NCBI RefSeq assembly: GCF_000143415.4
Contig: NW_003314294.1
Coordinates: 1,391,812-1,455,811, forward strand
From: Selaginella moellendorffii
Lineage: Eukaryota; Plantae; Lycopodiophyta
Direction: 5' to 3'
DNA: 64,000 nt
A program made the translations under genes and the position numbers. Below, in pieces: positions 5,011 to 64,000 of the stretch. Position 1 is the stretch's first letter. Each line of letters opens with the position of its first letter. Below the pieces are notes generated by a model. The model saw only the letters and a list, made by a program, of their open reading frames with translations. It was not told the DNA's origin and made no database searches.

Positions 5011-8000
5011 TCATAGGTAAACCAAGTTTATTCACCACCTTGATACTAAAAAAGTTATATGTAACACTTGGATTGAAAGGAATATTACCCAGACTACCCT
5101 AAATATCCATTTTTTGCCGCCATAAATTGATTGCACATAGAACTATTGAGTTCTATAGAGTTAATAACTTTCACCATACTACAGTAGACACCTAAGTTGT
5201 ATCCACAATGGATTCCACCATATTCACTTTAACATTCTTTAATCCTTTTATGAGAGGATAATATTTGACTTAATATCTAGCCTTTTGGTAACAAAAATAA
5301 TTGCCCTTTACTTTGTTTTCCTCCCATTGGTCTAAATGAAGCTTCTTTTTCGTTCTTTGAGCCACAATGCAGCAATAATTATTTCTTAAAGCATTGGTTG
5401 GTTAGTCATTATGTTGACTACCCTGTAGACCATTTTATTGACTAAAGTTGACCAAGTTGACTAGCAATTTTGGCAAAAGGATCTAAGTATTAGTGATAGC
5501 ATTAGTTGTTCCTAGAAAATCCTTTTTAACCTTCTGCTATGAATTTACTAAGTTTAAACTTTTGATAAAATATTGCATCTTTAACAACTCAATATAGGTG
5601 CTTGTGAGACTAAGGTAAATATTATAGAACTTGCAAGCATATGCATCCAAAAACAAAATGCCTTACCTAATATAAAGATCAACCTCTTTAAACTTTTTGA
5701 CAAATGAAGCACAAAAAACCTTTGTCAAATCACTTCAAGAAATTGGCTTCTAATTAGTTTTGATATAGTTCTTTCACCATGAAGAAGCATAACTTATAAC
5801 TTCATCACAAAAAAAATCAATCTTCACTTTATCTTTATAAGGGTTATGAAATTAACAACTTTCCTATGATTCCAATTAACAATCAACCTCTTAACTATCA
5901 TAAACAAAGATTTTCATTCCATAATACCATAATCCTTTACATGTTTGACATACTAATGGTAATCATAGACATAAGATTGATTCAACCCTTGAGGGTCTAT
6001 GCAAAGCAAGAAATCCTGATTAATAGAATCCTTAACTTCCTTAATGTCATTCTAAACTTCAGTAATTTAGGATTTTTACTGCACGACAACATCATCAAGA
6101 GTCTCTTCCTCCTCATCATAGCCCTCATCATGAACACCATACTCATCAAGATCTATTATCCTACTCATCTGCCATCCTCAAAAGAATATGCTACTTTGGT
6201 ACCCATGAAACAAACAAGGAGAAAAACCTAAGCCAACTTCCCAACCATAAAATATTCTTAGAATATTCATATGGTTCTTGTCATTGGAACTTTAAAACTA
6301 AACCTTAAATTCTTGAAAATAAAAAAAAATCTTATCCTACCCCTTAAAGCTTACTGTTCCATTCCTCCAATCCATAGAATGGAAGCCATTGTGTAGGTAG
6401 AGAGAATGCTATAAACCCTAAAGAAAGGTCCAAGTTGATATAATTTATCATTCTTATAAACATAATTTATTATGTAATAAATTATAATTTATCATTAGTT
6501 TACATTTTTTGTCATATGGTATATTAAATTTTTCATCTAGATATGATTTGTTATTTAGATATAAATCGATATAGTTATGTTGATATAGAATTTATTATAA
6601 AGTAGAACAACAATTTGTCATATCAAGTTTGTATAGAGTGGGAAAAAATAATTATAAATTATAAAGGCAGGAAACTAGTTTAAAAATTAGCTTCTAGAAT
6701 TTGGAGAATTGAAATAAGGGTTGCATTAAGTTAATGGTACACTAATATTTACAGAGGGTTGCATAAATTTAACAGTATACTTGCAATATAGTTGATTTCT
6801 CATAGAAAAGACTTCATAGTGAGATCTGTTGCAAAGTTGCATTCCAAACTCCCTACCATAACTGAAGAAATCATCTGCATGCTAAGGGATTTGAGAGCTG
6901 ACAAAAATTCACAACTTGCATATTGAATGTTTTCATTCATTCATTCATTAACTGTTTATAGGGTCCTATGGTGCCCACCAAGAAGCGTGAGACCAATGGA
7001 TTATAGTGTAGTGCACCTGAATTTGGAGCTAAACTCCAAGTCTATTGTGCTATAAAACAAGGGTCCAGTACAATCTTACGATCACTAGCTCCCTATATCT
7101 AGCACTTGCACGCAAAATAGTGTCAAATGGTATCTGGCACAATTTTGGCATATCGATGGCCTAACGTGAGGAGGAGGGTACCCCACTAACTAGAGCAGCA
7201 TGGAACTTAGACTTAAACCTAAGCTAGACTTAGAACAAAAAGCGATAGCGATAGTCAAACTTGCATTCTAAGCACTATCCTTACTATACATTTGAAACCC
7301 CCCATAGCCAGCCCCCCCCACCCCACCCCACCCATGAGGAACACATGCTTTAGGCATCCCCATGGTTATGGATTGAATCGATGCACCAAAGTGCCAAAGT
7401 CAGTCTACTAAAACTAACCCAAGTATTAACAAACAAGAGAAACAAAACTTGGATTTATAGAAATATATTACTTTATTGATTTGCAAGATTTATTACAAGA
7501 TTTACAAAAGCTAATCTTTATTACTAATCTCATATGCCATGCCAAGCTCACGAGCATGTGTAAGATTACTAAGAGATTCCTAAGTCAATTCATAAATTGG
7601 GTAACCTTTCCACTTAATTAGATACTTTCAACATTTGGCACGTTTAAGCCAGCATGTACCCAAAATAGCTTCCACTTCATATTTAAGTTCACCATCCACA
7701 ACTTCTGGTAGTGGACGAATCTCCACTTGATGTGCATCATCCATAATGTAAGGAGCCAATAAATTGGCATGAAATACATTATGAACATTGGACATTTCCG
7801 CAGGAAGATTCAACTAATAGGATACATTACCAATGCATTTCAACACCCAATAGGGTCCAACATATCTCAATAACAGCTTCGAGACAAAATTCACTTCATG
7901 TTCAAGTTCTGGGAAGATAGCCACACCTGATCTCCCACTTGATAGGATACATCCTGATGATGTTGATCCTTATCACGTTGATACCTATTTTGAGCTTTGC

Positions 8001-11000
8001 CCATCGCCTTAGTAGCTCTAGACCAACTTTGGCGTAGTTGCTCCGCATAAGTCTGAACGGTCGAGACCAACACTTCAAACATTGGTTTCGGTATAACAAT
8101 CTGTTGAGGAACCCCACGAGCATTCCCTTGCAGCATCTCCCATGGAGAACAACTAATAGTGCTGTGAAATGTGTTGTTATAACAGATTTCTACTGTGTCC
8201 AAATGCTCAACCCAGTCGCGTTGCTCTGCTGCAACATAGTATTGTAGATAATCCTCAACTTGAGCATTCACACGTTTGGTTTACCCATTAATTTAAGGAT
8301 GATAAGCCATACTACGTAGTTGGAACAATGTGCCCCAAAACTTCCCCGTAAATCTTGAATCTCTATTCGAGATCATCTCTTCGGGAAGACCATGAACCCA
8401 CATGGGAAAAGAGCTTTGCTGCTTGCTTCATATTCACTGTTTCCACAGTGGGAATGAAGTGTGCAATCTTTGACAACTGATTCACAACCACTATCAAAGT
8501 ATCATAACCCGTAGACTTTGGCAAGCAAGTGACAAAATCAAGTGTCACACTTTGAAATGGCCATGCTAGTGCTGGAAGGCACTGCAACTTTCTAGCCTGC
8601 TTCTCAGTTCTGCGCTTATATTGTTGGTATATAAGGCAGGAACAGACATAGTCCGCTACATCACCTTCCATACCAAACCAGAAAAATTCCTTTTTCAATG
8701 AAGCCAGAGTCTTTCGCTTTCCACCATGTCTCGCTGCCAAAACATCATGATGTTCCCGTAGAAACAATTGTTGCAGATCCTTAGAGGGAAGATACATTCT
8801 TTCTTGCTTATAGAATATAAGCCCATCTCGAACTAAAAAGTGAAGTTTCGCATTGGTGCAGCTAGCAACTTTTGCTACTTTGCTACCAGAGTTCTGCTTT
8901 GACAACTCCACATGGTGTAAGATTGCCTTCGCCAACAGATCACTTCCATATGAAGCCCAAACGTCCTCCAACCAATCCAAACTGATTGCTAATATTGTAT
9001 GAAACTGAGCCTAATGACTCAATGCATCCGGAACAATATTGTCTTTACTAGGTTTATATATGATTTCAATATCATATCTAGCAAGCTTCTCTTGCCAACG
9101 AGCCTGCTTCGGCATAAGCTTCGGCATAAGTAGCAAAGTATTTTAGTATGTTAATATCTGTATAAACCTTGGTATGTCCACCCAAGTAGTGTCTCTAGTG
9201 TTCTAGTGCCAACACTATAGCAAACATTTCTTTCTCATGCATTGGCTATCTTCGTTGGGTTTCATCCAATTTCTTAGAATAGAATGCAACAGGACAACTA
9301 TATCGCCTTAGCATAACACCAACCGCTTTGTCACAATCTTGCTGCAACATGGCACCAATAGCGTAGCTAAATGCATCACAATGCACTTCGAAGGGTTTAT
9401 CAAGATCTGGGATCCTGAGAATAGGAACAGTAGTCAAAATCTCCTTCAATCGTATAAAAGTATGATGACAAGTTGGTGTCCAATAAAACGGTATACTACT
9501 TCTTTGTCAACTCAGTTAACAGAAGAGCAATTCTTGCAAAATTGTGGACAAACTTGCAATAACATTTTATTAAACTGAGAAAGGAAGGAACATTTGATAT
9601 AGTGGTCAGGACTTCCTAAGACTTCACCACTTCCACCTTCTTTGAATCTACCTCAATTACACCACCACCAACTATATGTCCAAGAAAGTTTATGCACAAT
9701 TATCCGAAAACACATTTACTTTCCTTAGCATACAGTTTGTGTTTATGGCTAGGAGGTAGCCTTGGAGGCAAATCCTTCGGGAAGATATCCTGATTCTACG
9801 CCAACAACTCAAATATCTTCTTTGGTACAGGATCAACTTTGTCACCAATTTGAACTAAGCCACCTACATCTTTAGCTTCCATCACTTGAACCCAAAAGGT
9901 TCGACATCCCTTCTTAGCTGCTTTTTAAGTGACTCTCGCAGTCAAGAATTTAGCATCCCAATCCTTTGAGGAATGCTTTTGCAACTGGAAGGACACATCG
10001 GGATGTCTTTCTAACTTCAACATGATACAACTTTGTCTAGCACCATAAATCCCTTTAATATATTTGTTGAAGAAATCTATACCAAACACTATATGAAAAA
10101 TTGGTATCTTCAACACTACCAAGTCCACTCTTTCTTTCCACTTGGATATTTTTATTGGAACATCACTCACGAATTTTCTAGCTACTTGCCCACCTTCCGC
10201 AAACCAGAAGTGTATGGGCAATAGTTGCTTAGCATTCAATCCTAACAACTTCGGATATCACATTGTGTTTAGCTCCTATATCAATCATCACTCGGATTCA
10301 ATTTCCGTAGACAAAGCTTACTAGATACATTAACAGATTAGTGTTTGCATTAACTACAAGAAAAACTTGAGGAAAGCAACGAAAGTAATTCACCTCCTCT
10401 TCCTCATAATTTGCATTGACCAACTCATCAACCAATTCAACTTCACCACCACCATCTTCCCTCATGACATTAATACGAGACTTTGTCTTATGCTTGTTGG
10501 GACATTCTGAGGACCTATGTCCTGACTCTTCACAATAGAAGCAATGACCTACACTACCCATTTCACTAGGAGCAGGTTTTGTAGGTTGCTGTTGCTTCTA
10601 CCCACCAGGAGGAGGAACAAAGGGCCTAGGATCAGAAGTAGCTACTAGTGGTCTCCAACCACCACCACCTTTGTTAATTGTTGCTTGTGAGCCTCCAGGG
10701 TGGAACCTTCTTTCCACCCTTTGTTTCTAATCACCTTGTTTATCCTAGAATTTTTATTCTTGTCCGAGGTACTAGCATACAGTTGTTGATATTGTTCCAT
10801 GAGTAAGTGACTAAAGGCAACTTACTGTGCTACCTCCTTACACTCTAGGTACGTCTTCAGTTTAAACTTCAAAATTTCATTTCGAGAAAGTGAAATTAAA
10901 CCCTCTAGGAAATAACTTTGAGCATCTTCGTCACTCATATTTGCAATCATAATGCACTTTTGAGCAAATGCATTAATGTAATACATAAGGTCCTCTTGCT

Positions 11001-11159
11001 GTTTTAACCGTCGCAGCTCTATATGAAATCTCAAACCAAGATCATCTAACAAGTATTCCTTATGGATACAAGACTGCATTTTGGTCCAACTTTTAGTTTG
11101 CCCTTTTTCAGCACACACCTGGCGCCACCAAGTTTTGGCATGATCGGTGAGAAAGGATT

Positions 11160-13020
11160 GCACATACGCAACTTTTGTACGATCATTTATGTCTGCCATT
11201 ATGAAATAATTTTCCATATCGTAGACCCAATCTTCCAAAACTTAATAGTCCTGCATGCCTCTGAAATTAGGTGGTTTTAGAGGCTTGAACTTTAAAACTC
11301 ATGCAACCGGGGGTGGTTGCAAAACTTCATCGTCCTCAAAACTTGAAGAAGAGTTTGGTTGCTTAGGTTTAGTTGGTTTAGTTGGTTTAGCTTTTTTCTT
11401 CCTCTTTTTGTTCTCCTTCTTCAATTTGCGAATTTCCCTTTGCAAATTTTCAATCTCAACTTCCTAAGCCATACACTGTAGTACTGTAGCATCTGGCTCT
11501 TTCTCTTCTGACTTAACCTCAACCTCTTCTACAGCATCTCTAGCAAGGGTTTCCTCCTCTCAATTTGCCCATCTAGAGGTTTCAGCATCATCAACATGGT
11601 TCCTTTTCACCATCCTGCTAGCTACATATATGCCTCTATGAGTAACTGAACATGCATACAACATTCTTACCGAATGGTGCAATCAACTTAATCCTATACA
11701 GGTCACTTCATATCTACTAGAAAAGTCTCAGCGTATGCAACTTGAGTCAGAAAATCTGACAAAAGTTGGATAAAAATTGCTAAGAAAATTCCTCTAATAC
11801 CAAATGTAGTGCATTTGAATTTCAAGCTAAATTCCAAGCCCATTGCACTATGAAACAAAGGTCCTATACAATCCCATGAGCACTAGCTCCCCATATCTAG
11901 CACTTGCACGCAAAATGGTGTCAAATGATGTTTGGCACAATTTTGGCATACCGGTGGCCTAACACAAAGAGGAGGGTACTCCACCAACTAGAGCAGCATA
12001 GAACTTGGGCTTAGACCCAAACTGGATGCAAAACAAAGAGTGACACAGCTTAGTGGGAGTTTCCAACCACTATCCCTACTATAAATTTGGAATCCCCATT
12101 GTGCACACGCAACTTTCGTACGATCATGTATGTCTACCGCTATGAAATAGTTTTCCATATTGTAGACCCAGTCTTCCAAAACCTAATATTCACGCATACC
12201 TCTAAAATTGGGTGGTTTCGGAGGCTTGAACTTTGAAACTCGTGCACCGGGGGTAGTTACAAAACTTTATCATCCTCAAAACTTGAAGAGGAGTTTGGTT
12301 GCTCAGGTTTAGTTGGTTTAGCTGCTTCAGCTTCTTTCTTCCTTTTCTTGTTCTCTTTTTTCAATTTGTGAACTTCTCTTTATAAATTCTCAATCTCAAC
12401 TTCCTAAACCGTATGCTATAGTGCTTTAGCATCTGGCTCTTCCTCTTTTGACTCAACCTTAGCCTCTTCCACAGCATCTCTGGCAAAAGTTTCCTCCTCT
12501 TGATTCGCCCATCTAGAGGTCTCAACATCATCAACATGGTTCCATTTCACCATCCTGCTAGTTGTATGCATGCCTCTATGAGTAACTAAACATGCATACA
12601 ACATTCTTATCGAACGGTGCAATCCAATTAATCCTACACAAGTCACTTTAGATCTACTAGAAAAGTCTCTGTTTATGCAACTTGAGTTAGAAAATCTGAC
12701 AAAAGTTGGATAGAAATCACTGAGAAAATTCTTCTAATACCAAATGTAGTGCATCTAAATTTCGAGCCGAACTCCAAGCCCGTTGCACTATGAAACAAGG
12801 TTTTGGTATAATTCCATGAGCACCAGCTCTCCGTATCTAGCACCTGCATGCAAAATGGTGTCAAACAGTGTCTGGCACAATTTCAGCATACTAGTGGCCT
12901 AACACAAAGAGGAGGGTACCCCACTAACTATAGCAGTATGGAGCTTGGGCTTAGACCCAAACTGGATGCAAAATAAAGAGCGACACAGCCCAACAGGAGC
13001 TTCCAACCACTATTGCGCCC
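11160..13020 (-). repeat. Diverged tandem duplication (about 940 bp unit) of partial LTR + PBS + gag 5' end
   Basis: 11160-12100 aligns to 12100-13020. Two EDWVY(D/N)MENYF gag segments and two PBS. Confidence 0.85.
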
Positions 13021-13310
13021 CCTAATACCAAATGTAGTGCATCTAAATTTCGAGCCGAACTCCAAGCCCGTTGCACTATGAAACAAGGTTTTGGTATAAT
13101 TCCATGAGCACCAGCTCTCCGTATCTAGCACCTGCATGCAAAATGGTGTCAAACAGTGTCTGGCACAATTTCAGCATACTAGTGGCCTAACACAAAGAGG
13201 AGGGTACCCCACTAACTATAGCAGTATGGAGCTTGGGCTTAGACCCAAACTGGATGCAAAATAAAGAGCGACACAGCCCAACAGGAGCTTCCAACCACTA
13301 TCGCGCCCCC
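12734..13310. repeat. Near-identical 288-bp tandem copy of an LTR segment beside the gap
   Basis: 12734-13015 recurs at 13022-13303 (offset 288). ORFs 12673-12864 and 12928-13152 start with the same MTPFCMQVLDTESW sequence. Confidence 0.85.
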
Positions 13311-30985: not shown

Positions 30986-31842
30986 GAATGACAGGGAAGT
31001 TATTTTTTCCTTTGTCTTGGTGGACACTGTCTTGTTTTCCAGATTCTAAGAAACTCATACATGGATCCCTCGAAGGACAAACGGCATTGTCACATCGTTC
31101 TCCTTTTAGGCCCGTCTACTGGTCATACCTTCACAGTAACTTGTAGTCGTGCGCCTTCATCAAACGGCTGGAGGTGCAGCTGGAATGCAGGTGTTTCATA
31201 CGGGTTCCTTGATGACCTGCATCCCTGCACAGTATAGGTTGCCAGGAACAGGGGTTGTAACTTGGTGTTGGTGGCAAGGGTAACTCATCGATTGGTGGAC
31301 TGAGCAGAGGTGGTGGCAATGAAAGCTCATAGCTTGGTGATGGTGCAGGAGTGGGGCTTAACGTTCTCCTCCACATGTGTCAAGTTCATGAACTTCCAAC
31401 AAGTCTTGATCATGTGTTTGTTAATGTTGATGAAGATTGGCATTCTTGTCACCTAGACCAATTTACAGAGAATCACAAGAAACATATAGGAGTTTTAATT
31501 TTATGTTCATCTGGCTAAATATAAATGTTAAATTTAATTTGGGTTAATAAGGATATATAGGGAGAGAGCTAGAGCCCCAACTCCCTGAATAAAAATCAAC
31601 CCCATCCAAAAGATTTCTATAAATTAGCAAATGAGACTATGCCCCTTCAAAAGCCTTATTCATTAGTTTTAGGTCATTTTTAGCAAGTTAACTTCTAAAC
31701 TTCAATACCTGGGTTTAATCTATAACCATAGATAACCATAAAGATAACTATTATAGATTACTATCTTGTTGACCAATTTTTGGAATTTAAAGAAATGTAT
31801 TACATTATTGATTTACAAGATTTATTGTAAGGGATACAAAAG

Positions 31843-33410
31843 CTATTCTTTATTACTATTTTTATACTCTATGACAAGCTCATGGGCATGTGTAAGATTA
31901 CTAAAAGGCTCCCAAGTAGATTTACACATTAAGTAACTATGCCATTTGATTAGGTACTCATGACGTTTAGAATGTTTAGTCCAACGACTAACTAAAATAG
32001 CTTCAACTTCATACTCAAGTTCACCATTAACAACTACTGGTGGGAGATGAATGATTGTAGAGCATTCTATACAAGCATGATATAGTGCTAGTAAATTGAC
32101 ATGAAATATATCATATACATAGGATAACTCATTTGAAAGATCCAATTTATAGAATACATCACCAAACCATTTTAATACCTAGTAGGGCCCAATATATCTT
32201 GGTAATAACTTCCAAGATAAAAACCCCTTAACATGCTAGTTTCAGGAAGATAGGATCTTAATCTCCTACTTGGTAGAATATATCTTTATGATGTGTTTTA
32301 GGTTTTCATTGTGATGAAGCAAGAGTTGAGTTTTATCACGTCAATACCTATCTTAAGGTTTGCCCATTGCCTTAATAACCCTAGACCAACCTTAGTGCAA
32401 TTATTCTGTATAAGTCTCAATAGTTGGGACCAACACTTTAGACATTGGTTTTAATATAAGAATTTGCTAAGGAACTCCACAAGCATTTCCTTGTAGCATC
32501 TTCTATGGAGAACAATTAATAGTGTTTTGAAATATGTTGTTGTAATAGATTTCTATTGTGTTCAAATACTCAACCCAATTGTGTTGGTCCATCGCAACAT
32601 AGTATTGTAGATAATCTTTAATATGAGCATTCATATGTTCGGTTTGCCTATTAATTTGAGGATGATAAGCTATACTAAATTTTAACTTAGAACCAAATAA
32701 TTGGATCAGTGTGCCCCAAAACTTCCCTATAAATCTCAAATCGTTATTCAAGATCATATATTCGAGAAGACTATGAACTTGTATTACTTTATGAAAAAAG
32801 AGCTTTACCATTTACTTTGTATTCACTATTTCTATAGTTTGAATGAAGTGTGCAATCTTTGATAATCAATCCACAACTACTATCAAAGTACTATAACCTT
32901 TAGACTTTGATAAGCAAGTGACAAAATCAAGTGTCACACTCTAAAATGACCATACCAATGCTAGAATGCATTATGATTTCCTAGCTTGCTTCTTAGTTCT
33001 TCGCTTATAGAGCAAAAATGGACATAATCCACTATATCACCTTCCATACTAAACAAAAAAAATCCCTTTTTTAATGAGGCAAGAATCTTTCATTTACCAC
33101 TATGTTCCATTGTTGAAACATCATGATGTTTTAGAATCAACTATCACAAGTCCTTGGACAAAAGATACAATCTTTCTTACTTATAATAAATAAACCCATC
33201 CTTAAGTAAGAAGTGAAGTTTTTCATTAGTGCGAGCAATTTTGCCGCTTCACTAGCAAAGTTCTACTTCAACAACTCTACATGGTGCAATATTGCCTTTG
33301 CCAACGTATCACTTCTATCCTCCAACCAATAAGAACTAATTGCCGACATTACCTAGAACTAAGCCTGACGACTCAACGCATCTAGAACAATATTGTCTTT
33401 ACAAAGTTTA
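31843..33410 (-). mobile_element. Degenerate chromovirus fragment (end of RH, IN, chromodomain), same family as the 7-14 kb element
   Basis: KFSIAYHPQINRQTEH; EYEVEAILVSRW..EYLIKWHSY..STWEP. Truncated at 33410 by an LTR beginning TGTGAG. Confidence 0.88.
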
Positions 33411-35730
33411 TGTGAGACACAAATCCCAAAGCCTCAAAAGTGGAGCTGAAAGGGTGCCACGTGGTAGTGGCTGAAGCAAAAGCTAAACGAGAGTAACACA
33501 TTTGAGGATGGTCCAAAGTTGAGTTGAGCTCACAAGTTGAGCTCAATTTAGCTCAAGTCAATATTAGTCAACATAGTCAACTATAAGTCTTATAAGGAAA
33601 TATTAAGTTAGAAATATGTTATTCTTTGGTGAACTTGAAATTTATGAATTTAAGTATCAATGGTTTAGAGAAATTTCTATTTTTGAATCTTTCTAATGCA
33701 ATTTATACAATAAAATACTATTTTTAGAATTAGAAGTTCGTCTAAACCCATAGAAATTTTTGAGCTTTATTGGTCTCAAATAAAAATGGGAATATTGAAG
33801 TTCAAATGAACCTAAAATTTCTATTGTACATTTCAACATTTTAACATTTCAACAATTGACCAGAAATATATAAATAATTCGAAACACTGATTCACTTGTT
33901 CATTTTTTAGGTTTTACAGAGATGGGAAGCAAGGAAGACAAAAAATTTATAAGTATTTCTAACATTTAAAAATGTGAAAATGTTAATTTTGTTTCACTAC
34001 CACAATCTTTATATTACACACCTGGTCCTTATTACCCATCCGGAAATGTGGAGACCACTATCACTATTGATAAAAATGCTCCTGTTACTTCCAAAATAAC
34101 AGTCTAGAGCAAGAGAAAAGAAGAAATGGACAACATAGTGGAAAACACTAATAAATCCACTCTATAAACCTTTCAATGGCTTTTGTAATCCATTAAAATA
34201 TTATTAAAAAAAAGTAAATTTTTTTATATATATTTTATTTCTTTCGATATGTTTTGTCTTTGCAAAGAGTATAAATGTGTAGTATATATGATGTAGACAA
34301 ATCAAAGAGTTAAGTCTATATATGATTTTGGGATTGAAAGGTAATCTTGCAAAAAGGCATATTCGTGTGCCTGTGTGCATTTGCCATTATTATATATGGT
34401 AGGCCAGCTATATAAAATAAGGCTACGTATTAATTATGTGCTAGTTTTTAGGTTCTAGAACTCTATAGTCACTTGTCTCTTATAGTAGGTTGTAATTACT
34501 AAGACTGACAATTATGATTCAATATATTGTCATGTCATAATAAAACATCATTCCCGAGATTGAAATATAGTATATTAATCAAATAATTCTTATTGCTGGG
34601 AAGTTTAATTCTTCTTGTGTATTGCAATGGTTAGGAAGAAATTTACTTTTGGTCCTAGAGGCCTCTCATATGAGTTTTCACCTTCATCTCCAATCTCAAC
34701 CAATAATCCACCTTCACCTCTACGCAACAATCTTCTTTTTCATTTTGAGAGCTATTGTGAGGCTCTTTTATTTGCAACCTTGATTGCAACTAAACAAGAA
34801 TTCCTTCCTTATAATGTTGTTAAAAGAGTTGAATTGCTTCTAATGCTTCAAGAGCGATGTCAATATTTTCTTCAAGATCTTGCTCTAGATATGGCAAGAG
34901 AGCTTAATGTAGAGACATATTATCTTTAGTGTCTTATATGCAACTTTTATTTAAACAAAACAAATGGTTGCATAGGTTTGGTAAATTTTATTGAGCATTG
35001 TTGCAAATGCCCAAGAGCAAGTTTAGAAGGTATGCACGTGTGGATGTATAAGAAAATCAAGAAAGAATTAAAAACACACAGCTATTATGATTTCATGGTG
35101 GAGAACAATATTCCATTGGTGAACACTGCATCAATAAGTGCTGAATATAGGATATTTAAGCCACCCTTTAATGTAATGTGAAAGTCATGCATAGTTTTTT
35201 CAAAAGGTTAATTCTTTATGAGTAAAGTGGAGAATCTTATATTTTCGAGAATGATATTATTCTAGCATGTATAAAGATATTATTATATATACAAGTGGTT
35301 TTGACAATGTTATAATTCTGAAGTCCCATTTTTGAGACTGACAATTTAAACTTTCAAGAACCCCTAGATCTTTTCTTAGTATAAATACCAACAAGGGATG
35401 CTTTCAACATTGAAATTTCAATTTGTTTAGAGTGTAGGAATGGCTAGGGAAAATGTTATTGCTACTCGCACTTGGCCCCCATGCATTTTATATGAGTCTC
35501 CACCTCCGTCTCCAACTTCTACCAACATTCCACCCTTCCCTCCACACAACAATCATTGTGAGGCTTTTTCTTTTGTAGCCCCAAGTACTGAATAAGAGAT
35601 CTTTCTTCTAGATAATGTTCTAGATGTTGTTACTAAAGATGAATTGCCTCATGTGCTTCAAGAGCGATGCCAGATGTTTCTTCAAGATCTTATTCTAGAT
35701 ATGGTTGAAACTTTTGAAAAATCACATAAA

Positions 35731-37759: not shown

Positions 37760-40700
37760 ACACCAGCTACAGGAGGCAACACCCAAGCCCACTTGATGCC
37801 TGGGCTAACTCAGCCTATAGCCTACCCGAGGCCATGCAGGCCGGTTTGCTGGCATACCAGCCCGCCCCCAACAGCCATAGCTAGCCCATGCCGAGTGCTT
37901 GGGCGAGTGCCCGGCCTGAGCACCTAGCATGGGTGAGGCTGTGCATGGCAGTTCACCAGCGTGCCAGCCTGCCCCGCACCACCATGGCTGGCCCATGTGG
38001 AGTGCTTGGGCAAGTGCCCGGCCTAGGCACTTGGCACTGGCGAGGCCGTGTGGGGCGGTTCGCCGGTGTACTGGCCCGCCCCGCACAGCCATGGCCAGCC
38101 CACATAGAGTGCTTAGGCAAGTGCTTGGCCCGGGCACTTGGCATTGGTGAGGCCGTGCGGGGTGGTTCGCAGGCATACTGGCCCGCCCCGCACAGCCATG
38201 GCTGGCCTGCGCAGAGTGCTTGGGTGAGTGCCCGGTCTGAGCACTTGGTGCGGGCAAGGCCGTGCGGGGCAGTTCGCCGGCATACGGGCCTGCCCTACAC
38301 AGCCATGGCTGGCCCATGCGGAGTGCCCGGCCAAGTGCCTCAATTGGGCAACTGGCGCAGGTGAGGCCGTGCGGGGCAGTTCCCGGCGTACCGGCCCGCG
38401 CGGAGTGCTTGCGCGAGTGCCCCGCCCGGCCACTTGGTGCTGGCAAGGAATGATTGGTGATTCTGGAATTGTCACATACTCCTTTCCATCTCTTTGGCAC
38501 CGGTCCCATCCCAGCGAAAGGTGGGGAGAGTACCCATGAGGCTTGCGTAAGGCCACGATGTTCCGAAATGTAGTCCCAAAGTCCCAAATGGTGAAAGGGA
38601 AGAGGAGCAGTCCTCTAGTGTAGTGACCAAGGATACGGTCACATGGTGAGGAAGTCCCAAAGGATAGTGGGACTTAGAGGTTGGGCTTGCGGGCCTTGAT
38701 CTAGTGGCAGTGTTGGCGAACACGGCCATAGACAGAAAGGGACTTGGTGAGGATTGAAAAGGAGATATCGGGGAAGGCTATTCCCCATGTCTACGGGTTT
38801 TCTAAGGATGTTAAGGAGTGGATCTGGGATGACCACTCATGGACAAATGGCCTAGTCTTGGAGAGGCGGGATTGCAATGCAAGTGGTATTGGACCACCGA
38901 TGTGACCAAGGTGATTGGGCATGGCCTAGCATAACGAGCTGGCATGTTGGTGGTGCCTTGGGGTGTCGGTCATGAGACCGGACACATGGAGCACTTGGAC
39001 CAAGTGCAAAGGTTGAGTGGCATGGGTGCCATTCTCGGGGCTAGCAAGCCCCAAGTCCTGAGTGGGACTTGTGGAGGCTGTGAATGAGACTCCTCCAAGT
39101 GGTCGGAGGTGCGGTTAAGTGACTATAGTAGAATGGAAAAATTTAGTCGCTTACAACTTGGTATCGCAGCTGTTCCTTAGTTTGACTTTTATTGGTGCTC
39201 AAGTATATCACCACTAGCGTTGGCATCGGAAGGTCTGAGGAGTGGGCCTATCCTCGAGGAGTAGCAGGTCGGGAAGACATGGCTCTCCATTACAGTTCAT
39301 GTGTGAACTTGTAGACGAGGTGGTGGATAGAAAAGGGCCAATAATGGAACAACTTTGGGATCTTGGGAACAGTGCAAGGTTTTCCTCATTGAGTTGAGGA
39401 TATGATCCAGATGATCGTTTGACTCAACAAATTGGCTAATGTAGTTGTGGTAAACAACTATAGTTGGGATCACAGGGAAGATATAGACTCCCAAAATGAT
39501 AAAGGAGTCACAAGATTACCCTCATGTAGTTGAGGTTGGTGCTCATGAATGAGAGACCAGAAGTAATGACCGCGGGAGGTCAAATACGGAAAAGGACACC
39601 AGTCCTTGAAATGGTAGCTGGAGCTACCTCTAACAAATGCTGGAACAACCCGAGGAATTGGGGGTGTATTTAGAGGATGAGTTGGCATTCTCATCACATG
39701 GACAAGTGGTCCTAAGGGGTGAAAGGTTGCCCCTAAAGAACAAATTAAGTGTCGGAGTAACACTTGCAAAAGATGGTCCTTGTGAGTAGGACATGAATAC
39801 AAGGAGTTGTATTCCAATGAGCCAGCACCTCAAAAATAAGACCTCATAAGTCGTTGGATTAACAAAGTCCAAAAGGTTAAATGACTCCAATAGAGTCAAG
39901 GAATAATCCTAAGAGGTTAATGGAAGCATTTGGACTGAGGTGTGTGGTGCCCCATAAAGGATGAGGAGGATCTTGAGATCCAAGCATGAGAACAATGTGT
40001 ATCTCATTAATGGCAAAAGGTGCCATGCTAAAGTCGTGGGAAAGAGTTTCCCGGAAGAAAACAACTTTGACACAAAGTTATGCGTGAACTTTATGGTGCA
40101 GTGCTAGTGGATAATTGGCATAAGAGACAACCATATTGGTCTTGGCAAAAGACCTAGACACAAGTAAGAAGTGTCATAAAGGTAGGCTCGTGGAGCCAAT
40201 GGTGTGGAGACACCGAATGTGCCAAGGCGTGCTGCCTTGAGGTTAAGTTGGCGGGTTTATGAGAACCCTTTCCAAAGGAATCCCAATGGAAATGGGAATG
40301 GCATAGCCTAAGCTGGAAGGCATGCAATTAGAGTGTGGTGACCTAGATAATGGTGGAGGTGTGGAAGCACCAGCAATGAGTTATAGGACTTGACAACTAT
40401 GAGACAACTAAGCAAAAGGTGCAAAATAATTTGTTAAACTGGTAGAAGGTAACTACCTAAGACTTCTTATGGGGATAAGGAAGTTGGATATACCTTTATG
40501 GGGGATAAATTGCTTATGTTGCGATATAGTAAATCAATGTCGAAAATGGAATGCTCATTGTGAGAGAGGCCATTATTGGGACACTCAGACACTCTAGAAC
40601 ACCAAAAGGTGTTGTTTGGTGTCGTGAGGGCAATGGACAATGCCTAAGGGACAAAGTCCCTAGCGAATGATGGATAGGAAGTGTTATCCAAATGTCCAAG

Positions 40701-41730
40701 GTTGCGGAGACAAGAAAAGTCCGTCTACCCGAATTGGACAAAGCCAAAAGGGGATTTTGGCAAGGCTAGGGATGGGCATATAAAGGCCCATAAGTAGCAA
40801 CAGTAATCCTAGGGTATGGGATTACAAGGTGAGCAAACCCGGATTGAGGAACCACTCCTAGGCTGTCGGGTAGGTTCATCCCTATGAATACTTGCAAAAG
40901 CATGGTAGAAAGTGAGAAGCTATCTTCCTAGTCTGGAGGAAAATGACCGAAGGAAACGTATGAGGCCAAAATGCAAGTAGTAAAAGGATAGAACCGAACC
41001 ATAGGAATTGACAGGCATGACCAAGGGTGGTTAGCAAGTTGGGAGTGGAAAATCAAGTGGGTGCTCAAGCATGTTGTTACTAGCGACCAAGGTGCTATGG
41101 AGAGTCAAAAACATGGGATTGTCCATGTTAGACTATATGGCAATTGGAAAGCTTGTGAAAGGAGAGGCTTTAGCAAGCTAAAGGGACAGAGTTCCTTCGA
41201 AAGGTTCCCAAAGACAGTTCTAGGTAACTAGATACTTTGAAAGCCAAGTGTAAATGGTTCATAGAACGCGCGAAATCAGAGTGGTGTAGCAAAAGCGTGG
41301 TTTTGAAGTTTGCCATGAGGCTTGCCATACCGGGCCATTAGACTATGGTGTTTCGCCTCGGCGTCCCGAAGGAAGTGTTGCACCCAAGGCTTGGGATTTA
41401 GAGGGTCCCATGATCAAATCTTGTTGTACCAAGGGGTGTTAGGAACTTGGAGGCTTGGTGTGCTTGGCTGCTTGTGCCTGCGGGGAGTGTAGCCGAACCT
41501 TAAGTCCAGTCTAACCCGAGGAGGGGGATTGGGGGAGATTTGGGAATTCATGGATGGATGGCTAACACTCCATTGCTCGTGCAGTGAGTAACTGAAACCA
41601 AGTAGAACCAAGTAGGAGCTGGTACCATAGGCGGGAACCTTGGCAAGGGAACTTAGTAAAAGCCAAGGCAGTGTTAGACGGATAGACAAGGTAAACTGGC
41701 AAATTGGAAAGGAAAAATTTGTGGCTTACA
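37760..41730 (+). mobile_element. Decayed LTR element(s) nested in the MULE
   Basis: LTR end GCTTACA at 39155 followed by PBS TGGTATCGCAGC (39159-39170). 41330-41730 matches the 3' part of the LTR at 58130-58522. The left boundary is uncertain. Confidence 0.65.
37828..38445. repeat. 107-bp GC-rich tandem repeat, about 5.8 copies
   Basis: GAGGCC/GAGGCT/AAGGCC anchors at 37828, 37935, 38042, 38149, 38256 and 38363, each exactly 107 bp apart. Confidence 0.95.
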
Positions 41731-57366: not shown

Positions 57367-58522
57367 TATAAGGAACCAACTCGCCGAGGTGTCGTAGGCT
57401 AAAGGAACCCCGAAAGCATGACCAAAATGACAAAGAGTTCATCGGATGGGACCAAGTCGAAGATCGAGTCCAAGACCGACTCTAGGACTGAGTTCGAGAT
57501 AGAGTCCGGAATCGAGTCCGAGACCGACTCGGGGACCGAGTTAGAGTCCGAGTTCAAGACCGAGTTCGAGACGGAGTCCGAGATCCGAAATTGGGCCGAA
57601 ATTGGGTCCGAGACCGAGTCCGAGGTCGAGTCCGAGGTCGGGTCCGAGATCGGGTCCGAGATCGAGTCCGAGATCGAGTCCGAGACCGAATCCGAAATCG
57701 GGTCCGAGATCGAGCCAGAGACTAAGTCCAAATACTAATACGGGTCAAGGGGTGAAAGCCCAAAGCGTGCGTCTCCCAGGGGGGGGGGGGGGGGGGGGCT
57801 GCAGGGGGTTCCAAAAGTATAGTAGGGATAGTGAGGTCCAGGAACCAGTTTAGAATGGACTCTCCAGTGGGGCTCCCAAACTGACTTGAGGTTGGGACTG
57901 GGACTGAGGGACCTTGGGTGGGAGTAAGCATGGACTTGGTTGGTGCCGGAGGGGCCATCCAAGGAAGTGCTCAAGAGCAGCTCCCACTCCCGAAAGGGAA
58001 ACCGATTGCGGTGCTCCTGGCTCATGTGGAGTGGTGCCCCACTTGAGTACCATGCGGCTCATTGGTCCTCGCCCTTCCTAGGGGCTTGGGCCTTCCTTCG
58101 GGATGGAAGTGGGGGGCGAGAGGTACCCATACTGGGCTGCTAGGCCACGGTGTTTCACCCCGGCGTCCCGAAGCAAGTGTTGCACTCAAGACTTGGGATT
58201 TAGAGGGTCCCATGATCAAGTCTTGTGGTACCAAAGGATGTTAGGAACCTGGAAGCTTGGTGTGCTTGGCTGCTTGTGCTTGCGGGGAGTGTAGCCGAAC
58301 CTTAAGTCCAGTCTAACCCAGGGAGGGGGATTAGGAGTGATTTGGGAATCTGTGGATGGATGGCTAACATTCCGTTGCTCGTGCAGTGAGTAGTTGAGAC
58401 CAAGTAGGAGCTGGTACCATAGGCGAGAACCTTGGCAAGGGAACTTAGCAAAAGCCAAGGCGGTGTTGGACGGATAGACGAGGTAAGCTGGCAAATTGGA
58501 AAGGAAAAATTTGTGGCTTACA
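57367..58522 (+). repeat. 5' LTR (1156 bp) with GAGTCC/GAGATC microrepeats and a G-run
   Basis: The first ~184 bp match 63747 onward with 7 mismatches. Ends GGCTTACA before the PBS. Confidence 0.93.
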
Positions 58523-61500
58523 ATTTGGTATCGGAGCCTTTATCTCAGTTCTAGCGAAGGATAGAGGCAGATTGCTGGGAGATGGCAAGGGCAGGGCGTA
58601 AGCGAACCCAGGCAGAGACGGAACCTCCACCAGAGCTGGAGCCTCCGGTCGAACAAGATGCTATGGATGAGGAATCCTTGCATGAGGAGGACTCTAGTGA
58701 GGAAACTTCCAAACAGGAGTCCGGTGGCGAGGTTCGGTCGTCCAAGGCTCGATTGGATGTGCTAGAAGGACAGTTGGCACAGACCAATGCCCTGCTGGAA
58801 ACTCTCGTACGCAAGCTAAAGCGTGACGAGAGGCGGAAGAAAAAGAAAAAGACTGCGGATGCTGGCAGCGCAGAAGGTGCGGATCTTTCGGCCGGGACTG
58901 AGGCAAAACAAAACAAGGTTGAACAGACCAAAGTAGAATCAGTCCCTCAGGCAGTTCCGAAGTACAAACCAAAGCCCCCACCGGTCTTCAAGGGAGTGAA
59001 CGACTATAAAGTGGTGGAGGATTGGTTTTACGATATGGAGGACTACTTCCGAGCGTTGTGATTACCAAGCTCGGAGAAGGTCCCATGTGCAAAACCATAC
59101 TTGGCAGATAATGCCAAGTCTTGGTGGAGAACGACGGAGGCCAACGAAGGACCAGTGGCCACTTGGGACATGATGAAAGCGAGGATCCGCGCAACATACA
59201 TTCCTCCGAATGCCACTCTGCATCTGAGAGATGAGCTGAGTAGGCTGAAGCAGACTGGAACCATCCAGGAATATGTGAATGGGTTCATGGCAAAGAGGAT
59301 ACTTGTCACAGACATGGGGGATATGGATGTGTTCCATGCCTTCATATCAGGTTTGCAAACCTGGGCTCGCGGTGAGGTGATGCGGTGGAACCCGACCAAC
59401 TACAAGGAAGTGTTGGATGCGGCCATCAAGGTGCATTTCAACGATAACCTGCGAAAGGGGAACACGACGGGGTCGGGATCCACATTTAGCAAAGGGGCCA
59501 AACCAAGGGGAACGTATAGCAAGGGGAAATTCAAAAAGAGTTTCTCTAAGAATGAGTCCTCGGGGTTCCGGAAAGGCAAATCCGGTGGCCAGCGAGCGAG
59601 TATGTGGGGGAGTCAAGCAAAAAAAGACAAACCCACGGATAAGAAGGTCAAGTCATATAGCAGCGTGGGAAACAACGTATGCTACAACTGCGGCGAAGCG
59701 GGACACTTCTCGAGGGAATGTCCGTACCCGAAGAAGGCCAGAGCCAATATGGCCATCAAGTCGGGTGAAGTCCAAACTGAGGTATGTGATCCAGTCCCTA
59801 ACTCAAAGTTACTCATTACACGAGCAACTTTGGTAGAGAGTCGTTCGCGACATCTACTAGCACTCCGAGGGAAGCTCAGAGGTAGCTTTGTTAAGATCCT
59901 TATTGACACGGGTGCTTTGGATAATTTTGTGGCTGCAGACATAGTCCGGCAAGCCGGACTAACGGTGCAGTGGCTAGGCGAACCAAGGACTATAGAGTTT
60001 GTTCAAGGTAGCCAAAGCACCGATGAGGTACTTCGACAAGCGAGAGTCGAAGTGGGGACATGGAAAGTGGACATGGATTTCACCGTCTTGGACATGGCGG
60101 GATTTGACGTGATCTTCGGAATGGATTGGTTTAATCGGTTCGTGGTAGCCCTACATGGACAAGGTAGGAACCTTGTGGTATTGGCGAATGCCCAAGGAAG
60201 AAGATCTAGGGTGGAGGCCTAGGATCTAAAGGTAGGGCAAAGTAAGGCCAAAGAGTCATGCTTAAACCTGGTTTCCACGAGAGGACAACTCACTAAAGGA
60301 ACTAAGGCAGCCTTTTTGTGCTTACTCTCGGTGAAGAGTGACAAAAAGACAAGAACAGAAGAAGTACCTTTAGTGATCCAGCTGGTGCTGGACCAATTCC
60401 AGGATACCATGCCGGGGGAGCTACCGGCGGGGTTGCCCCCCGCACGACTGATAGAACATAAGATTGAGCTGGTCGAGGGTGCTGAGGCGGTGGTTCGTCC
60501 ACCCTATCGATTGAACGAAAAAGAACTCGCGGAGCTCAAGAGCCAACTAGAGGAGTTGGTGGACAAAGGGTATGTTAAGTTGAGCAAGTCGCCGTATGGG
60601 GCGCCGGTGCTATTTGTGAAAAAGAAAGATGGATCTATGCGCATGTGCATAGACTACCGGTTGCTCAACAAGTATACCAAGAAGAACAAGTACCCTTTGC
60701 CAAGGATCGAGGACCTGTTCGATGGCAAAATACTTCTCGAGGATTGACCTAAGGTCAGGATACTACCAGATCAGGGTAGCTGAGGAAGATGTCGAGAAGA
60801 CAACCTGTCGAATGAGGTATGGGAGCTTTGAGTTTCTGGTGATGCCCTTTGGGCTGTGCAATGCGTCGGCAACGTTTTCGGCGTTGATGAACCACATCTT
60901 TGTACCCTATCTGGATCACTTCGTGGTCGTCTATATCGACGATATCCTGATCTATAGCAAGACGCTAGAGGAGCATGCCGAACACTTGGCAAAGGTGTTT
61001 GAGAAACTAAGGGAACACAAATTGTATGCTAAAGAGAGCAAATGTGACTTTGCTCAACAAGAGGTAAAGTTTCTCGGGCATGTGGTGGGCCAGGACGGGC
61101 TCAAGGTGGACCTGGAGAAGGTCCAAGCGATCCAGGAATGAGAGCGACCTTCGAATGTACATGAGTTGAGGGCGTTCTTGGGGCTATGCAACTACTATCG
61201 AAAGTTTATCAGACACTATTCGAGAGTAGCCCTGCCCTTAACGGACCAAACAGGAAAAGGGAAGATGGTATGGATGGCGGAATGCGAGGCGGCATTCGTC
61301 CACCTCAAAGGGAAGTTGAGGAAGGCTCCGGTGTTGGCATTACCAGATTTTGGTAAGGACTTTGAGGTAGACACGGATGCTTCGGACTTTGCGTTGGGCG
61401 CAGTTTTGAAGCAAGACAACCATCCAGTAGCGTTCTTCTCGAAGAAGTTGGACAAGGCTCAACAGAAGTGGCCTGCCCATGAGAAGGAATTGTTTGCGGT

Positions 61501-62444
61501 GGTCAAGGCGCTCAAGGAGTGGCGACACTACCTTGGGAGACACTTCAAGGTTTACACGGACAATGTGGCAACGAAACACTTCTTGTCACAGCCCGACCTG
61601 AGAGGGAAACAAGGTCGGTGGGCCAATGCCTTAGCCGAGTTTGATTGCGAGATTCTGTACAAGCTTGGGAAGAGCAACATCGTGGCAGATGCGCTAAGTC
61701 GAAAAGCGAGCTTGAGGTTGGCGATCTCCAGCGCAACAGCAACCTTCTGGGACGATGTGCGGACAGCATATCAGAACGATGGTCTAGCACAAGAAGTGTT
61801 GTTGAGGAATCTGGAGGCACGGGAAGCTCACCAGAGAGGTGAGCTGCCGACGGAAGAGAAAACGGGCTATGCGGAACGCAACGGACTCATTTATTACAAG
61901 CAAACGAGGGTGTATGTTCCAGAAGGGGAACTAAGGAAGGTAGCCTTAGAAGAGTGTCATGACGGACCTCTTGCGGGACACGGCGGAGTGCCCAAGACGA
62001 TGGGCTTACTCAAGAGGAAGTACCATTAGTCAGATATGGCTAAGGACGTCCAAGACTATATAAAGACATGTCCAACATGTCAGCAGGTCAAAGCCGTGAC
62101 TAAGGCTGGTGGGGGCTTGTTGCAAAGCATCCCAATTCCAGATCGTCCGTGGAAATGTCTTACGATGGACTTCATCACGGGACTACCCCCAAGCGAGGGG
62201 TTCGATGCGATATTAGTGGTGGTGGATCAATTTTCGAAGATGGCACATTTCATACCCACCACAACGGATGTGGATGCGGAAGGTGTGGTGAAGCTGTTCT
62301 TCGAACAAGTAGTTCGAGTGCGGGGAAGGCCAGAAGAGATTATCTCAGATCGAGATAAGATCTTCACTAGTAGGTTCTGGAGGACCCTCCTGGAACAGTA
62401 TCGCACCAAGTTGAAATTCAGCACAGCCTATCACCCACAGACAG

Positions 62445-62491
62445 GTATAGGGTATTAAGTCAAGTTTGGTGGCCCTAACACTTCTTGACAG
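62445..62491 (+). other. Putative 47-bp GT-AG intron in the integrase core
   Basis: CAG|GTATAG...CTAAC (62475-62479)...CTTCTTGACAG|AC. Removal gives STAYHPQT-D-GQTERVN in frame. Confidence 0.88.
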
Positions 62492-62909
62492 ACGGACAAA
62501 CGGAAAGGGTGAATAGGCAGCTGGAGGATTATTTGCGATGCTATGTCTCGGGAGACCAGACCAATTGGGTAAGTCATTTGGGACTTGCAGAAATGTGTTA
62601 TAACAACTCACCACATTCGAGTATCGGGGTGAGTCCATGGGAAGTCATCAATGGGCGAGCTATTGAAGGTTCTGTGGAACTCGGCGTGGCCGAGTATCAT
62701 GGAGAGCTACCCGTAGTGGAGGCATTCACGGCGGAAAGACTCAACATTTGGAATCTAGTGAGGGATTCCTTGGAACGGGCTCAACAAAGGCAGACCAAGT
62801 ACGCGAACTTAAAGCGCCAGGATGTAGAGTTCCAAGCTGGGGAGAAGGTGTGGCTGAACACCAAGAACCTCAGGCTACCAAGTGGGATCAGCAGAAAGTT
62901 GACCCAAAG

Positions 62910-62961
62910 GTAAAAATGCATGTATTCCTGTAAATGAATTGATCTTGAGTTCCTTAAGCAG
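62910..62961 (+). other. Putative 52-bp GT-AG intron before the GPY/F motif
   Basis: AAG|GTAAAA...TTCCTTAAGCAG|GT. Removal gives SRKLTQ-R-FAGPYEI in frame. Confidence 0.88.
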
Positions 62962-63406
62962 GTTCGCGGGGCCTTATGAGATCGAGGCACGAATCGGTAA
63001 AGTGGCTTACCGACTCCGACTTCCTCCAGAGATGGGGAAGATGCACCCAGTGTTCCACGTGAACTTACTCAAGCCGTACTTTGAGGATCCGCTTCGCAAG
63101 GACTAAGTAAGACCCTTACCTGAGGTTATCCAAGGGGAAGAGGAATACGAAGTTGAGGCCATCCTCAATGCGCGCAAGAGCAAACGACAAGGACGCGAGG
63201 TGAGAGAGTTCCATGTGAAGTGGAAAGGATTTCCACACTGCGAAGCAACATGGGAACCGGAGAAGAACCTAGCGAACGCGCGAGATCTAGTGGAGGAATT
63301 TCTGCAAGGCAGAACTCTATGTACTTATGCAAAGTTCAATTAAAAATATCAATTTGCAAAGTTGAGCAAGTGGCATATGTTGGGACCCGAAGGAGCGCCG
63401 AAGGTA

Positions 63407-63725
63407 AGCTAATTAGCATGGGTTAGCTAGGTCGACCAGGCGTAGGGAGCTACGCCCGACTCCCTGCGGGGATGTCGAATCCGTAGACGTATTCTACGGA
63501 GGTTGGGTTCGAGTCCCAACCCCCTAGTAAAGCAAGGCTGGGTTCAAGTCCCGACCCCATACTAGGGCGTGGTGAGGGGAGGAGTATAGGGACACCTATA
63601 TTCCGTTGTCATGGGCTCTTGGCCGGGGAGGCTAACTTAGGCACACCGCTAAGTGGGGGGATGCCCCCGGAGACATGGTCAACAAGTTGTAGGATAAAAC
63701 GAGACGTTCGATGTGGGCATCGAAC
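63407..63725 (+). other. Multi-hairpin structured element in the retrotransposon 3' UTR
   Basis: About 11 adjacent inverted repeats, including two tRNA T-arm-like GGGTTC(G/A)AGTCCC loops. Confidence 0.7.
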
Positions 63726-63746
63726 TTCTTCTATGGGTGGTGGAGT

Positions 63747-64000
63747 TGTAAGGAACCAACTCGCCGAGGTGTCATAGGCTAAAGGAACCCTGAAAGCATG
63801 ACCAAAATGACAAAGAGTTCCTCGGATGGGACCAAGTCGAAGATCGAGTCCAAGACCGACTCTAGGACCGAGTTCGAGATAGAGTCCGGAATCGAGTCCG
63901 AGACCGACTCGGGGACTGAGTTCGAGTCCGAGACCGAGTTCGAGACGGAGTCTGAGATCCGAAATCGTGTCTGAGTTCGAGACGGAGTCTGAGATCCGAA
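63747..64000 (+). repeat. 3' LTR (partial, truncated by the window end)
   Basis: TGTAAGGAACCAACTCGCCGAGG after the PPT; matches 57367 onward. Confidence 0.95.

Follow-up and report, generated by a model that had tools for sequence, protein, structure and literature searches.

A hairpin array in the 3' untranslated region of an intron-bearing Selaginella chromovirus, a candidate signal for RNA sorting

A chromovirus with two integrase introns

The window, a 64,000-nt stretch of Selaginella moellendorffii DNA (contig NW_003314294.1), ends within a Ty3/gypsy element, and the feature under study lies between the chromodomain stop of that element (63341-63343) and its 3' LTR (from 63747). The coding part of the element and its borders are as follows:

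57367-58522, plus strand: 5' LTR of 1156 nt, containing hexamer repeats and a poly-G tract of 20 nt (sequence)
58526-58537, plus strand: primer binding site (PBS) of tRNA-Met type, followed by a 44-nt leader up to the gag AUG
58582-62458, plus strand: gag-pol, with Gag, CCHC knuckle, PR, RT, RH and IN core (Pfam, ORFs)
62445-62491, plus strand: intron 1, 47 nt, GT-AG, with a CTAAC branch-like motif (missing from relatives; 47 nt skipped by one read)
62910-62961, plus strand: intron 2, 52 nt, GT-AG (missing from relatives; sequence)
62962-63343, plus strand: last exon, with the integrase SH3 fold and the chromodomain (PF24626, PF00385)
63318-63372, plus strand: AT-rich spacer with UGUA (63320) and AAUUAAA (63338), a candidate proximal poly(A) signal (motif scan, inference)
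63735-63745, plus strand: polypurine tract (PPT), aligned with the PPT of relatives
63747-64000, plus strand: beginning of the 3' LTR, which shares 90% identity with the 5' LTR across 259 nt and continues beyond the window

The gag-pol ORF spans 3877 nt with its stop (3874 coding nt without it) and is disrupted in this copy by stops and one frameshift; when unspliced, it terminates at a stop (62456-62458) located within intron 1. From its AUG at 63032, the last exon holds 309 coding nt.

The element is likely SM1-Galahad, a Galadriel-related chromovirus of S. moellendorffii (Novikov 2012; PMC3350952), matched by published features and not by sequence. SM1-Galahad is described as ~7.5 kb long, with an LTR of >1 kb bearing a poly-G of 11-25 nt, a tRNA-Met PBS, a ~3885-bp ORF without chromodomain and short ORFs of 316 and 309 bp, the last of which carries the chromodomain (PMC3350952). 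Here the LTR is 1156 nt with 20 G, the reading frames measure 3874, 318 and 309 coding nt, stops excluded (with the frameshift of this copy), and a tRNA-Met PBS, a PPT and the Ty3/gypsy domain order with a chromodomain are all present. The top named protein matches on the integrase side include Solanum and Capsicum proteins (47-48%), which agrees with the published Galadriel link. Protein searches returned no near family member (best 48-53%; at most 45% across most of the query), and thus no protein of the spliced form was found. What the SM1-Galahad paper takes as extra ORFs are, in our reading, exons behind introns; its main text has 0 matches for 'intron' and 'untranslated', and its section on the element gives no 3' structure (PMC3350952).

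Both GT-AG inserts interrupt the integrase reading frame and, on sequence comparison, they are true insertions of spliceosomal type and host size into the integrase of an LTR family present in many copies; GT-AG stretches of the neighbouring kinase gene, collected by regular expression and eye, measure 52-69 nt. Among 80 metagenome loci that are ~50% identical, the first insert is missing in all 75 measurable loci and the second in all 42, and a second chromovirus family of the window lacks them as well (first insert, 0 of 2 copies; second insert, 0 of 1 measurable copy). Depth over the introns equals flanking depth in DNA run X1, with no intron-removing joint among the 15 listed of 42. Two raw RNA runs of 9.2 million reads each gave 9 and 3 matching reads, which is too little to judge expression level, strand or transcript ends. 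In one of them, X22, five neighbouring bins together have the depth of one 150-nt read spanning 62399-62439 and 62487-62595, with 47 nt skipped at an offset of five letters common to the intron ends. Joints supported by <3 reads are unlisted, and the splice is thus read from bin depths and arithmetic: the total of 9 reads in X22 fits only a single, apparently spliced read. Intron 1 therefore appears to be spliced in RNA, on one read, and no splicing of intron 2 was seen among the same 9 and 3 reads.

We found no literature describing these introns or the array discussed below, which the supplement of PMC3350952, Repbase, REXdb or subscription papers may annotate. According to a 2025 review, there has been no direct study of nuclear RNA export for plant LTR elements, and Ogre and EVADE are the only ones that it names as intron-bearing (PMC12786077). 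The introns are probably more notable than the array.

The second chromovirus family, decayed and lacking integrase introns, occupies 7449-11805 and 31780-33411 on the minus strand, with an AT-rich tail and LTRs of ~290 nt; 11157-13310 consists of internal duplications. A 917-nt repeat at 11.2-13.0 kb, considered as an SM2-Galahad LTR, was rejected since it is such an internal duplication.

The hairpin array and its T-loop units

Between the AT-rich spacer and the PPT lie the following predicted structures, of which we count 63407-63683 (~280 nt) as the array proper and the PPT-adjacent hairpin separately:

63407-63500, plus strand: four hairpins, at 63407-63428, 63439-63456 (GGAG loop), 63457-63477 (UGCG loop) and 63480-63500
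63500-63529, plus strand: T-loop/B-box hairpin, repeat unit 1, 7-bp stem and 7-nt loop (p 0.98-0.99)
63535-63564, plus strand: T-loop/B-box hairpin, repeat unit 2, within the 63522-63567 stem (context-dependent fold)
63581-63604, plus strand: 10-bp hairpin with a GACA loop (p 1.0)
63605-63683, plus strand: predicted four-way junction, its closing stem set round the last three small hairpins
63706-63725, plus strand: PPT-adjacent hairpin, common to intronless chromoviruses (alignment, pair counts)

The first-pass annotation had described an unbroken run of hairpins here, and all the arms it named were found where it placed them. Its statement that nearly every base of 63407-63668 lies in a hairpin holds for the ten hairpin spans, which cover 222 of 262 nt, and less so for the pairing itself, as 178 of 262 are paired at p>0.5. 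The first hairpin (63407-63428) has pair probabilities of 0.5-0.6 and the other three of that group 0.87-1.0; seven in-register stems, including the PPT hairpin, reach 0.87-1.0, save for the outermost pair of 63619-63635. The CTTAG/CTAAG stem is present in the MFE structures. The closing pairs of the four-way junction have p 0.77-0.82, and the junction adopts an identical fold in isolation (-36.2). Taken alone, 63522-63567 folds best (-16.4) into the stem CCCTAGTA/TACTAGGG, proposed to enclose the second T-arm, but within 63311-63760 this stem falls to p~0.

The structure of the array is real and beyond chance. Folding of 63400-63730 yields -145.9 kcal/mol, with z -5.66 and 0/100 shuffles as good, so that the shuffle comparison suggested at first pass came out in favour of structure; the minus strand of the same region gives z -4.80. 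Non-overlapping stems of at least 6 bp number 7 against a shuffle mean of 1.56 (reached in 0/500 shuffles), those of at least 7 bp number 5 against 0.48 (0/500), and those of at least 5 bp number 8 against 4.48 (17/500). Among 19 same-size windows of the element folded locally, none has a lower energy than the array, which ranks second by z (-4.47), between two coding windows at 59686 (-5.25) and 62665 (-4.09). An AT-rich host stretch near 44.3 kb equals the array in its number of short stems. As a separate observation, the protease-coding region 59686-60060 folds as far beyond shuffles as the array does (z -5.25).

Searches for known elements and long-range partners were negative within their scope. 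No Rfam family matched 62000-64000 at E<=10 or the whole window at gathering score (0 in each search), and the hammerhead ribozyme of a retrozyme was accordingly not found; a pattern search of viral contigs gave 10 matches, none related to the element. The array has no complement of >10 nt in the rest of the element. A dimerisation site was considered and rejected, as two palindromes (8 and 10 nt, at 63408 and 63430) are close to what 330 nt would yield by chance. Pairing with p up to 1.0 is also predicted between the final part of the chromodomain frame (63311-63326) and the stretch that holds the PPT and the beginning of the LTR (63735-63749), which would close the entire 3' UTR.

Units 1 and 2 form a 30-nt direct tandem duplicate (83% alike), each with a 7-nt loop that matches the tRNA T-loop/B-box. 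In 23 contigs (X1 loose end 63528) there is a further T-loop unit, which shares the 13-nt core but not the outer arms and sits, in those other copies, between units 1 and 2; the 6-nt bulge 63530-63535 looks like its remnant. One single-copy joint in X1 duplicates unit 2. The number of T-loop hairpins thus varies through tandem duplication. A T-loop 10-mer recurs in the LTR hexamer repeats at 63920, so the T-loop may derive from those repeats and not from a tRNA. B-box-like words also occur in the hexamer repeats (57450-57730, 63830-64000), which form an open reading frame with many Glu and Ser codons.

The T-loop words might act as DNA, as B-boxes binding TFIIIC, either in a relic of a Helenus- or SINE-like pol III promoter or in a chromatin boundary. 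An A-box 16 nt from its B-box is too close, and the sole A-box-like match lies 16 nt ahead of the second B-box. The matches at 63506-63516 and 63541-63551 are two of three strict B-box matches in 64 kb, where 0.88 are expected and three are reached in 4/100 shuffles, and both strands fold alike with DNA parameters (-71.9 and -70.5). Selaginella also has a tRNA-derived TRIM, Helenus-1_SMo (PMC10886601), with which the element shares a B-box and the PBS, whose 12 letters are the opening letters of the TRIM. Like Helenus and Cassandra, the element carries small-RNA-like sequence within an LTR element, but those TRIMs are non-coding and hold in their LTR a complete tRNA-like unit, A and B boxes included, whereas here T-arms alone stand in the 3' UTR of a coding one (PMC10886601). 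Moreover, a looser B-box pattern is not enriched (14 vs 14.7), 63401-64000 lacks a TTTT terminator, and ARAGORN called 0 tRNAs; on sequence, the array appears to hold no usable pol III promoter. A DNA site needs no stems and would leave the eight other hairpins unexplained, and we regard a DNA role as improbable.

A tRNA-like signal that moves RNA between cells or through the phloem could be sought in the T-loop hairpins and the cloverleaf-like junction. tRNA-like structures in 3' UTRs mobilise plant mRNAs, with anticodon and T-loops mattering most (PMC10226581), and a four-way junction is predicted here. The full cloverleaf (acceptor, D, anticodon and T arms) was missing in the ARAGORN and Rfam searches, and mobility would leave intron retention unexplained, so this role seems highly improbable.

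Copies of the element were compared through DNA depth, with summed contig depth not taken as copy number. Depth is 0.70-1.30 million over the array and 0.55-1.32 million over coding bins, and this equality indicates that most copies carry the array. Three deletions remove most of it, each at single-copy depth (140-240), which indicates that they did not spread. That a structured cis-acting domain lies in the 3' UTR of an intron-bearing chromovirus, as first proposed, thus agrees with the data: the introns are real, and copies keep both introns and array. Differences among DNA copies are mainly C>T (43) and G>A (41), so that G-U pairs are expected from G-C decay and, contrary to the initial suggestion, tell nothing about RNA-level structure. 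Among the 40 listed of 154 variants, none falls in the named stems, under a ranking that is no test of selection, and one lies in 63407-63668 against 37 in 62200-63310. We did not use this low count as proof, because the ranking rule is obscure and neutral decay should strike stems too.

The array could also be largely a by-product of a GC-rich UTR, assembled by slippage duplications and captured pieces of LTR repeat or tRNA, with no specific role and with only the PPT hairpin mattering. The tandem duplicate with its variable unit number, the deletions of most of the array, the 10-mer common to the LTR repeats, the coding windows that equal it by z and the relatives that replicate with a ~70-nt tail would all fit. 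Slippage yields direct repeats, however, and not ten different stems; the stem count was reached in no shuffle, the deletions remained unspread, and the variants listed spare the stems, with the reservation on ranking just given. We therefore hold this explanation to be unlikely.

The PPT-adjacent hairpin and the link between array and introns

The hairpin at 63706-63725 aligns with a hairpin before the PPT in metagenome relatives, and its stem appears from the alignments to covary across three chromovirus lineages. In the main relative family, six inner pairs are kept in 52-55 of 55 copies; of 63 chromodomain-match loci, 8 without the search motif were left uncounted, and one, L024, was added by hand. 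The closing G-C pair is common to the window, the main family and L024, whereas at the next three pairs L024 differs on both sides from both others, and the fifth pair differs among all three. The relatives carry a G-AGGA-C loop (L001:1477-1540, L024:1353-1412). At one loose end among copies of the element, a double transition preserves one pair of this hairpin, with the outer pair broken. The first-pass annotation had counted this hairpin as part of an intron-linked signal; since intronless relatives keep it with compensatory changes, it is not intron-linked and would be a separate, older element linked to replication. We found no description of such a hairpin in front of the chromovirus PPT in the literature, and its covariation across distant chromoviruses makes it a second, general lead.

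The array proper behaves differently. In 35 relative loci the LTR begins 65-72 nt past the chromodomain match, which leaves no space for an array in those intronless relatives, and blastn of the 3' UTR against 80 relative loci gave nothing better than E 0.69. The tails of the second, intronless chromovirus family of the window (family B) fold with z -1.1 and -1.7 in decayed copies. Among the sequences compared, the array proper is thus known, on sequence, only from this family. The relatives are ~50% identical and mostly of one family (50 of 52 relatives' flanks). SM2-Galahad, the nearest intronless sister, has by its published sizes 784 nt of internal sequence beyond its ORF. The proposed co-segregation of array and introns is therefore partly supported: the intronless relatives compared have no array, and the intron-bearing side is represented by one lineage only.

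A proposed sorting of spliced and unspliced RNA

Two frame-breaking introns kept in many copies oblige the family to separate its spliced from its unspliced RNA. As spliced molecules seem to exist although the copies keep the intron, a selection step before reverse transcription would be required. We propose that the array is a 3' signal by which full-length, intron-keeping genomic RNA would be selected for packaging by Gag, and we give this reading a probability of about 0.4 because its mechanism is all inference. Integrase and chromodomain would be made from spliced RNA, which would probably end at the AT-rich site just past the stop and lose the array, the PPT and R; the truncated RNA would thereby be excluded from particles. 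Unspliced RNA would continue through the array, which would so mark the genomic RNA, its G-rich loops and T-loop mimics being bound by the zinc knuckle of Gag or by a host tRNA-binding factor, with the PPT-adjacent hairpin as a separate, older replication element.

Structure beyond chance and the retention of array and introns in most copies support packaging. HIV-1 Psi, RSV muPsi and the MLV signal resemble the array as clustered hairpins with G-rich tetraloops (the loop of RSV SL-C is UGCG), and in the predicted fold we likewise find stable hairpins with exposed guanosines, together with a CCHC knuckle in Gag. Known retroviral packaging signals, these three included, are located 5', in the leader, whereas the array is 3', is predicted only and has no sequence likeness to them; in this element only 44 nt of leader follow the PBS. 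Zinc knuckles of retroviruses bind guanosines exposed in loops, as in the GGAG tetraloop of HIV-1, a loop that can be replaced without loss of packaging (PMC7599994). In EVD, splicing is coupled to early termination (PMC5580714), and in BARE the translated and packaged RNA pools are separate (PMC3735527). These elements and Ogre resemble the present one as plant LTR elements with spliced and unspliced RNAs, but in them splicing concerns gag/protease or the interval between PR and RT, whereas here two host-size introns lie in integrase.

Against packaging stand the coding windows that reach comparable z and the similar AT-rich stretch that the intronless family B has past its stop, and the likeness of array loops to knuckle-binding loops may carry less weight since it was spotted post hoc. 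No transcript end was seen at the proximal AT-rich site in the few RNA reads and contigs examined, and one presumed-RNA contig (63199-63457) reads through it.

The bromovirus box-B, a hairpin whose tip mimics the tRNA T-loop, recruits RNA for replication; the array is like it in its T-loop mimic hairpins, but box-B belongs to an RNA virus and here tandem units stand in an LTR element. A broader version of our proposal, in which an amplifiable array of T-loop mimics, present only on the long unspliced transcript, would recruit RNA for export as well as packaging, while the two host-type introns are spliced for integrase and unspliced RNA alone is copied, we consider quite doubtful.

The main rival to packaging is that the array enhances export of intron-retaining RNA through TREX adaptors (ALY, MOS11), as the CaMV 35S leader does, and we judge it unlikely. 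The genomic RNA of the element does retain two introns. The CTE, which is located near the PPT, the IAP RTE, the MusD MTE and the CaMV leader all resemble the array as structured cis elements on unspliced retroelement RNA. In LTR elements, the structured RTE and MTE serve export (PMC12786077), and the CaMV leader is a structured export enhancer that binds ALY1, ALY3 and MOS11 (PMC8421220), though it lies 5' and the array 3'. Export alone, however, would leave unexplained why spliced RNA, which is exported too, goes uncopied; no export receptor is known in plants in the source consulted (PMC8421220), EVD and Ogre retain introns with no such element described in the review (PMC12786077), and the array matched no Rfam family, the CTE, RTE and MTE included. 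Those three use NXF1, which plants reportedly do not (PMC12786077, PMC8421220), and a true CTE is unlikely for that reason; the analogy drawn at first pass is thus not supported in mechanism.

A shield against nonsense-mediated decay, also raised at first pass, would act on the long 3' UTR of unspliced RNA, in which intron retention sets the stop at 62456-62458, ~1.3 kb ahead of the LTR. The stability element of Rous sarcoma virus acts directly past the stop and is pyrimidine-rich, whereas the array lies ~950 nt past that stop and is G-rich; the fit is poor, and we consider this the least probable explanation of all.

The compact 280-nt array is a ready candidate for RNA sorting, testable by simple reporter and binding assays; should it prove neutral, the introns would still be the notable feature.

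Minor observations concern LTR sequences elsewhere in the window. The 3' part of the 5' LTR holds a branch-like GCTAAC with a downstream CAG (58367-58387) and a GTAAGC donor-like site (58483-58488), and an LTR piece at 41325-41730 bears the same branch-like and donor-like motifs. A degenerate element with a PBS-like site at 39160 carries GC-rich repeats of ~107 nt in its LTR-like part (37827-38399).
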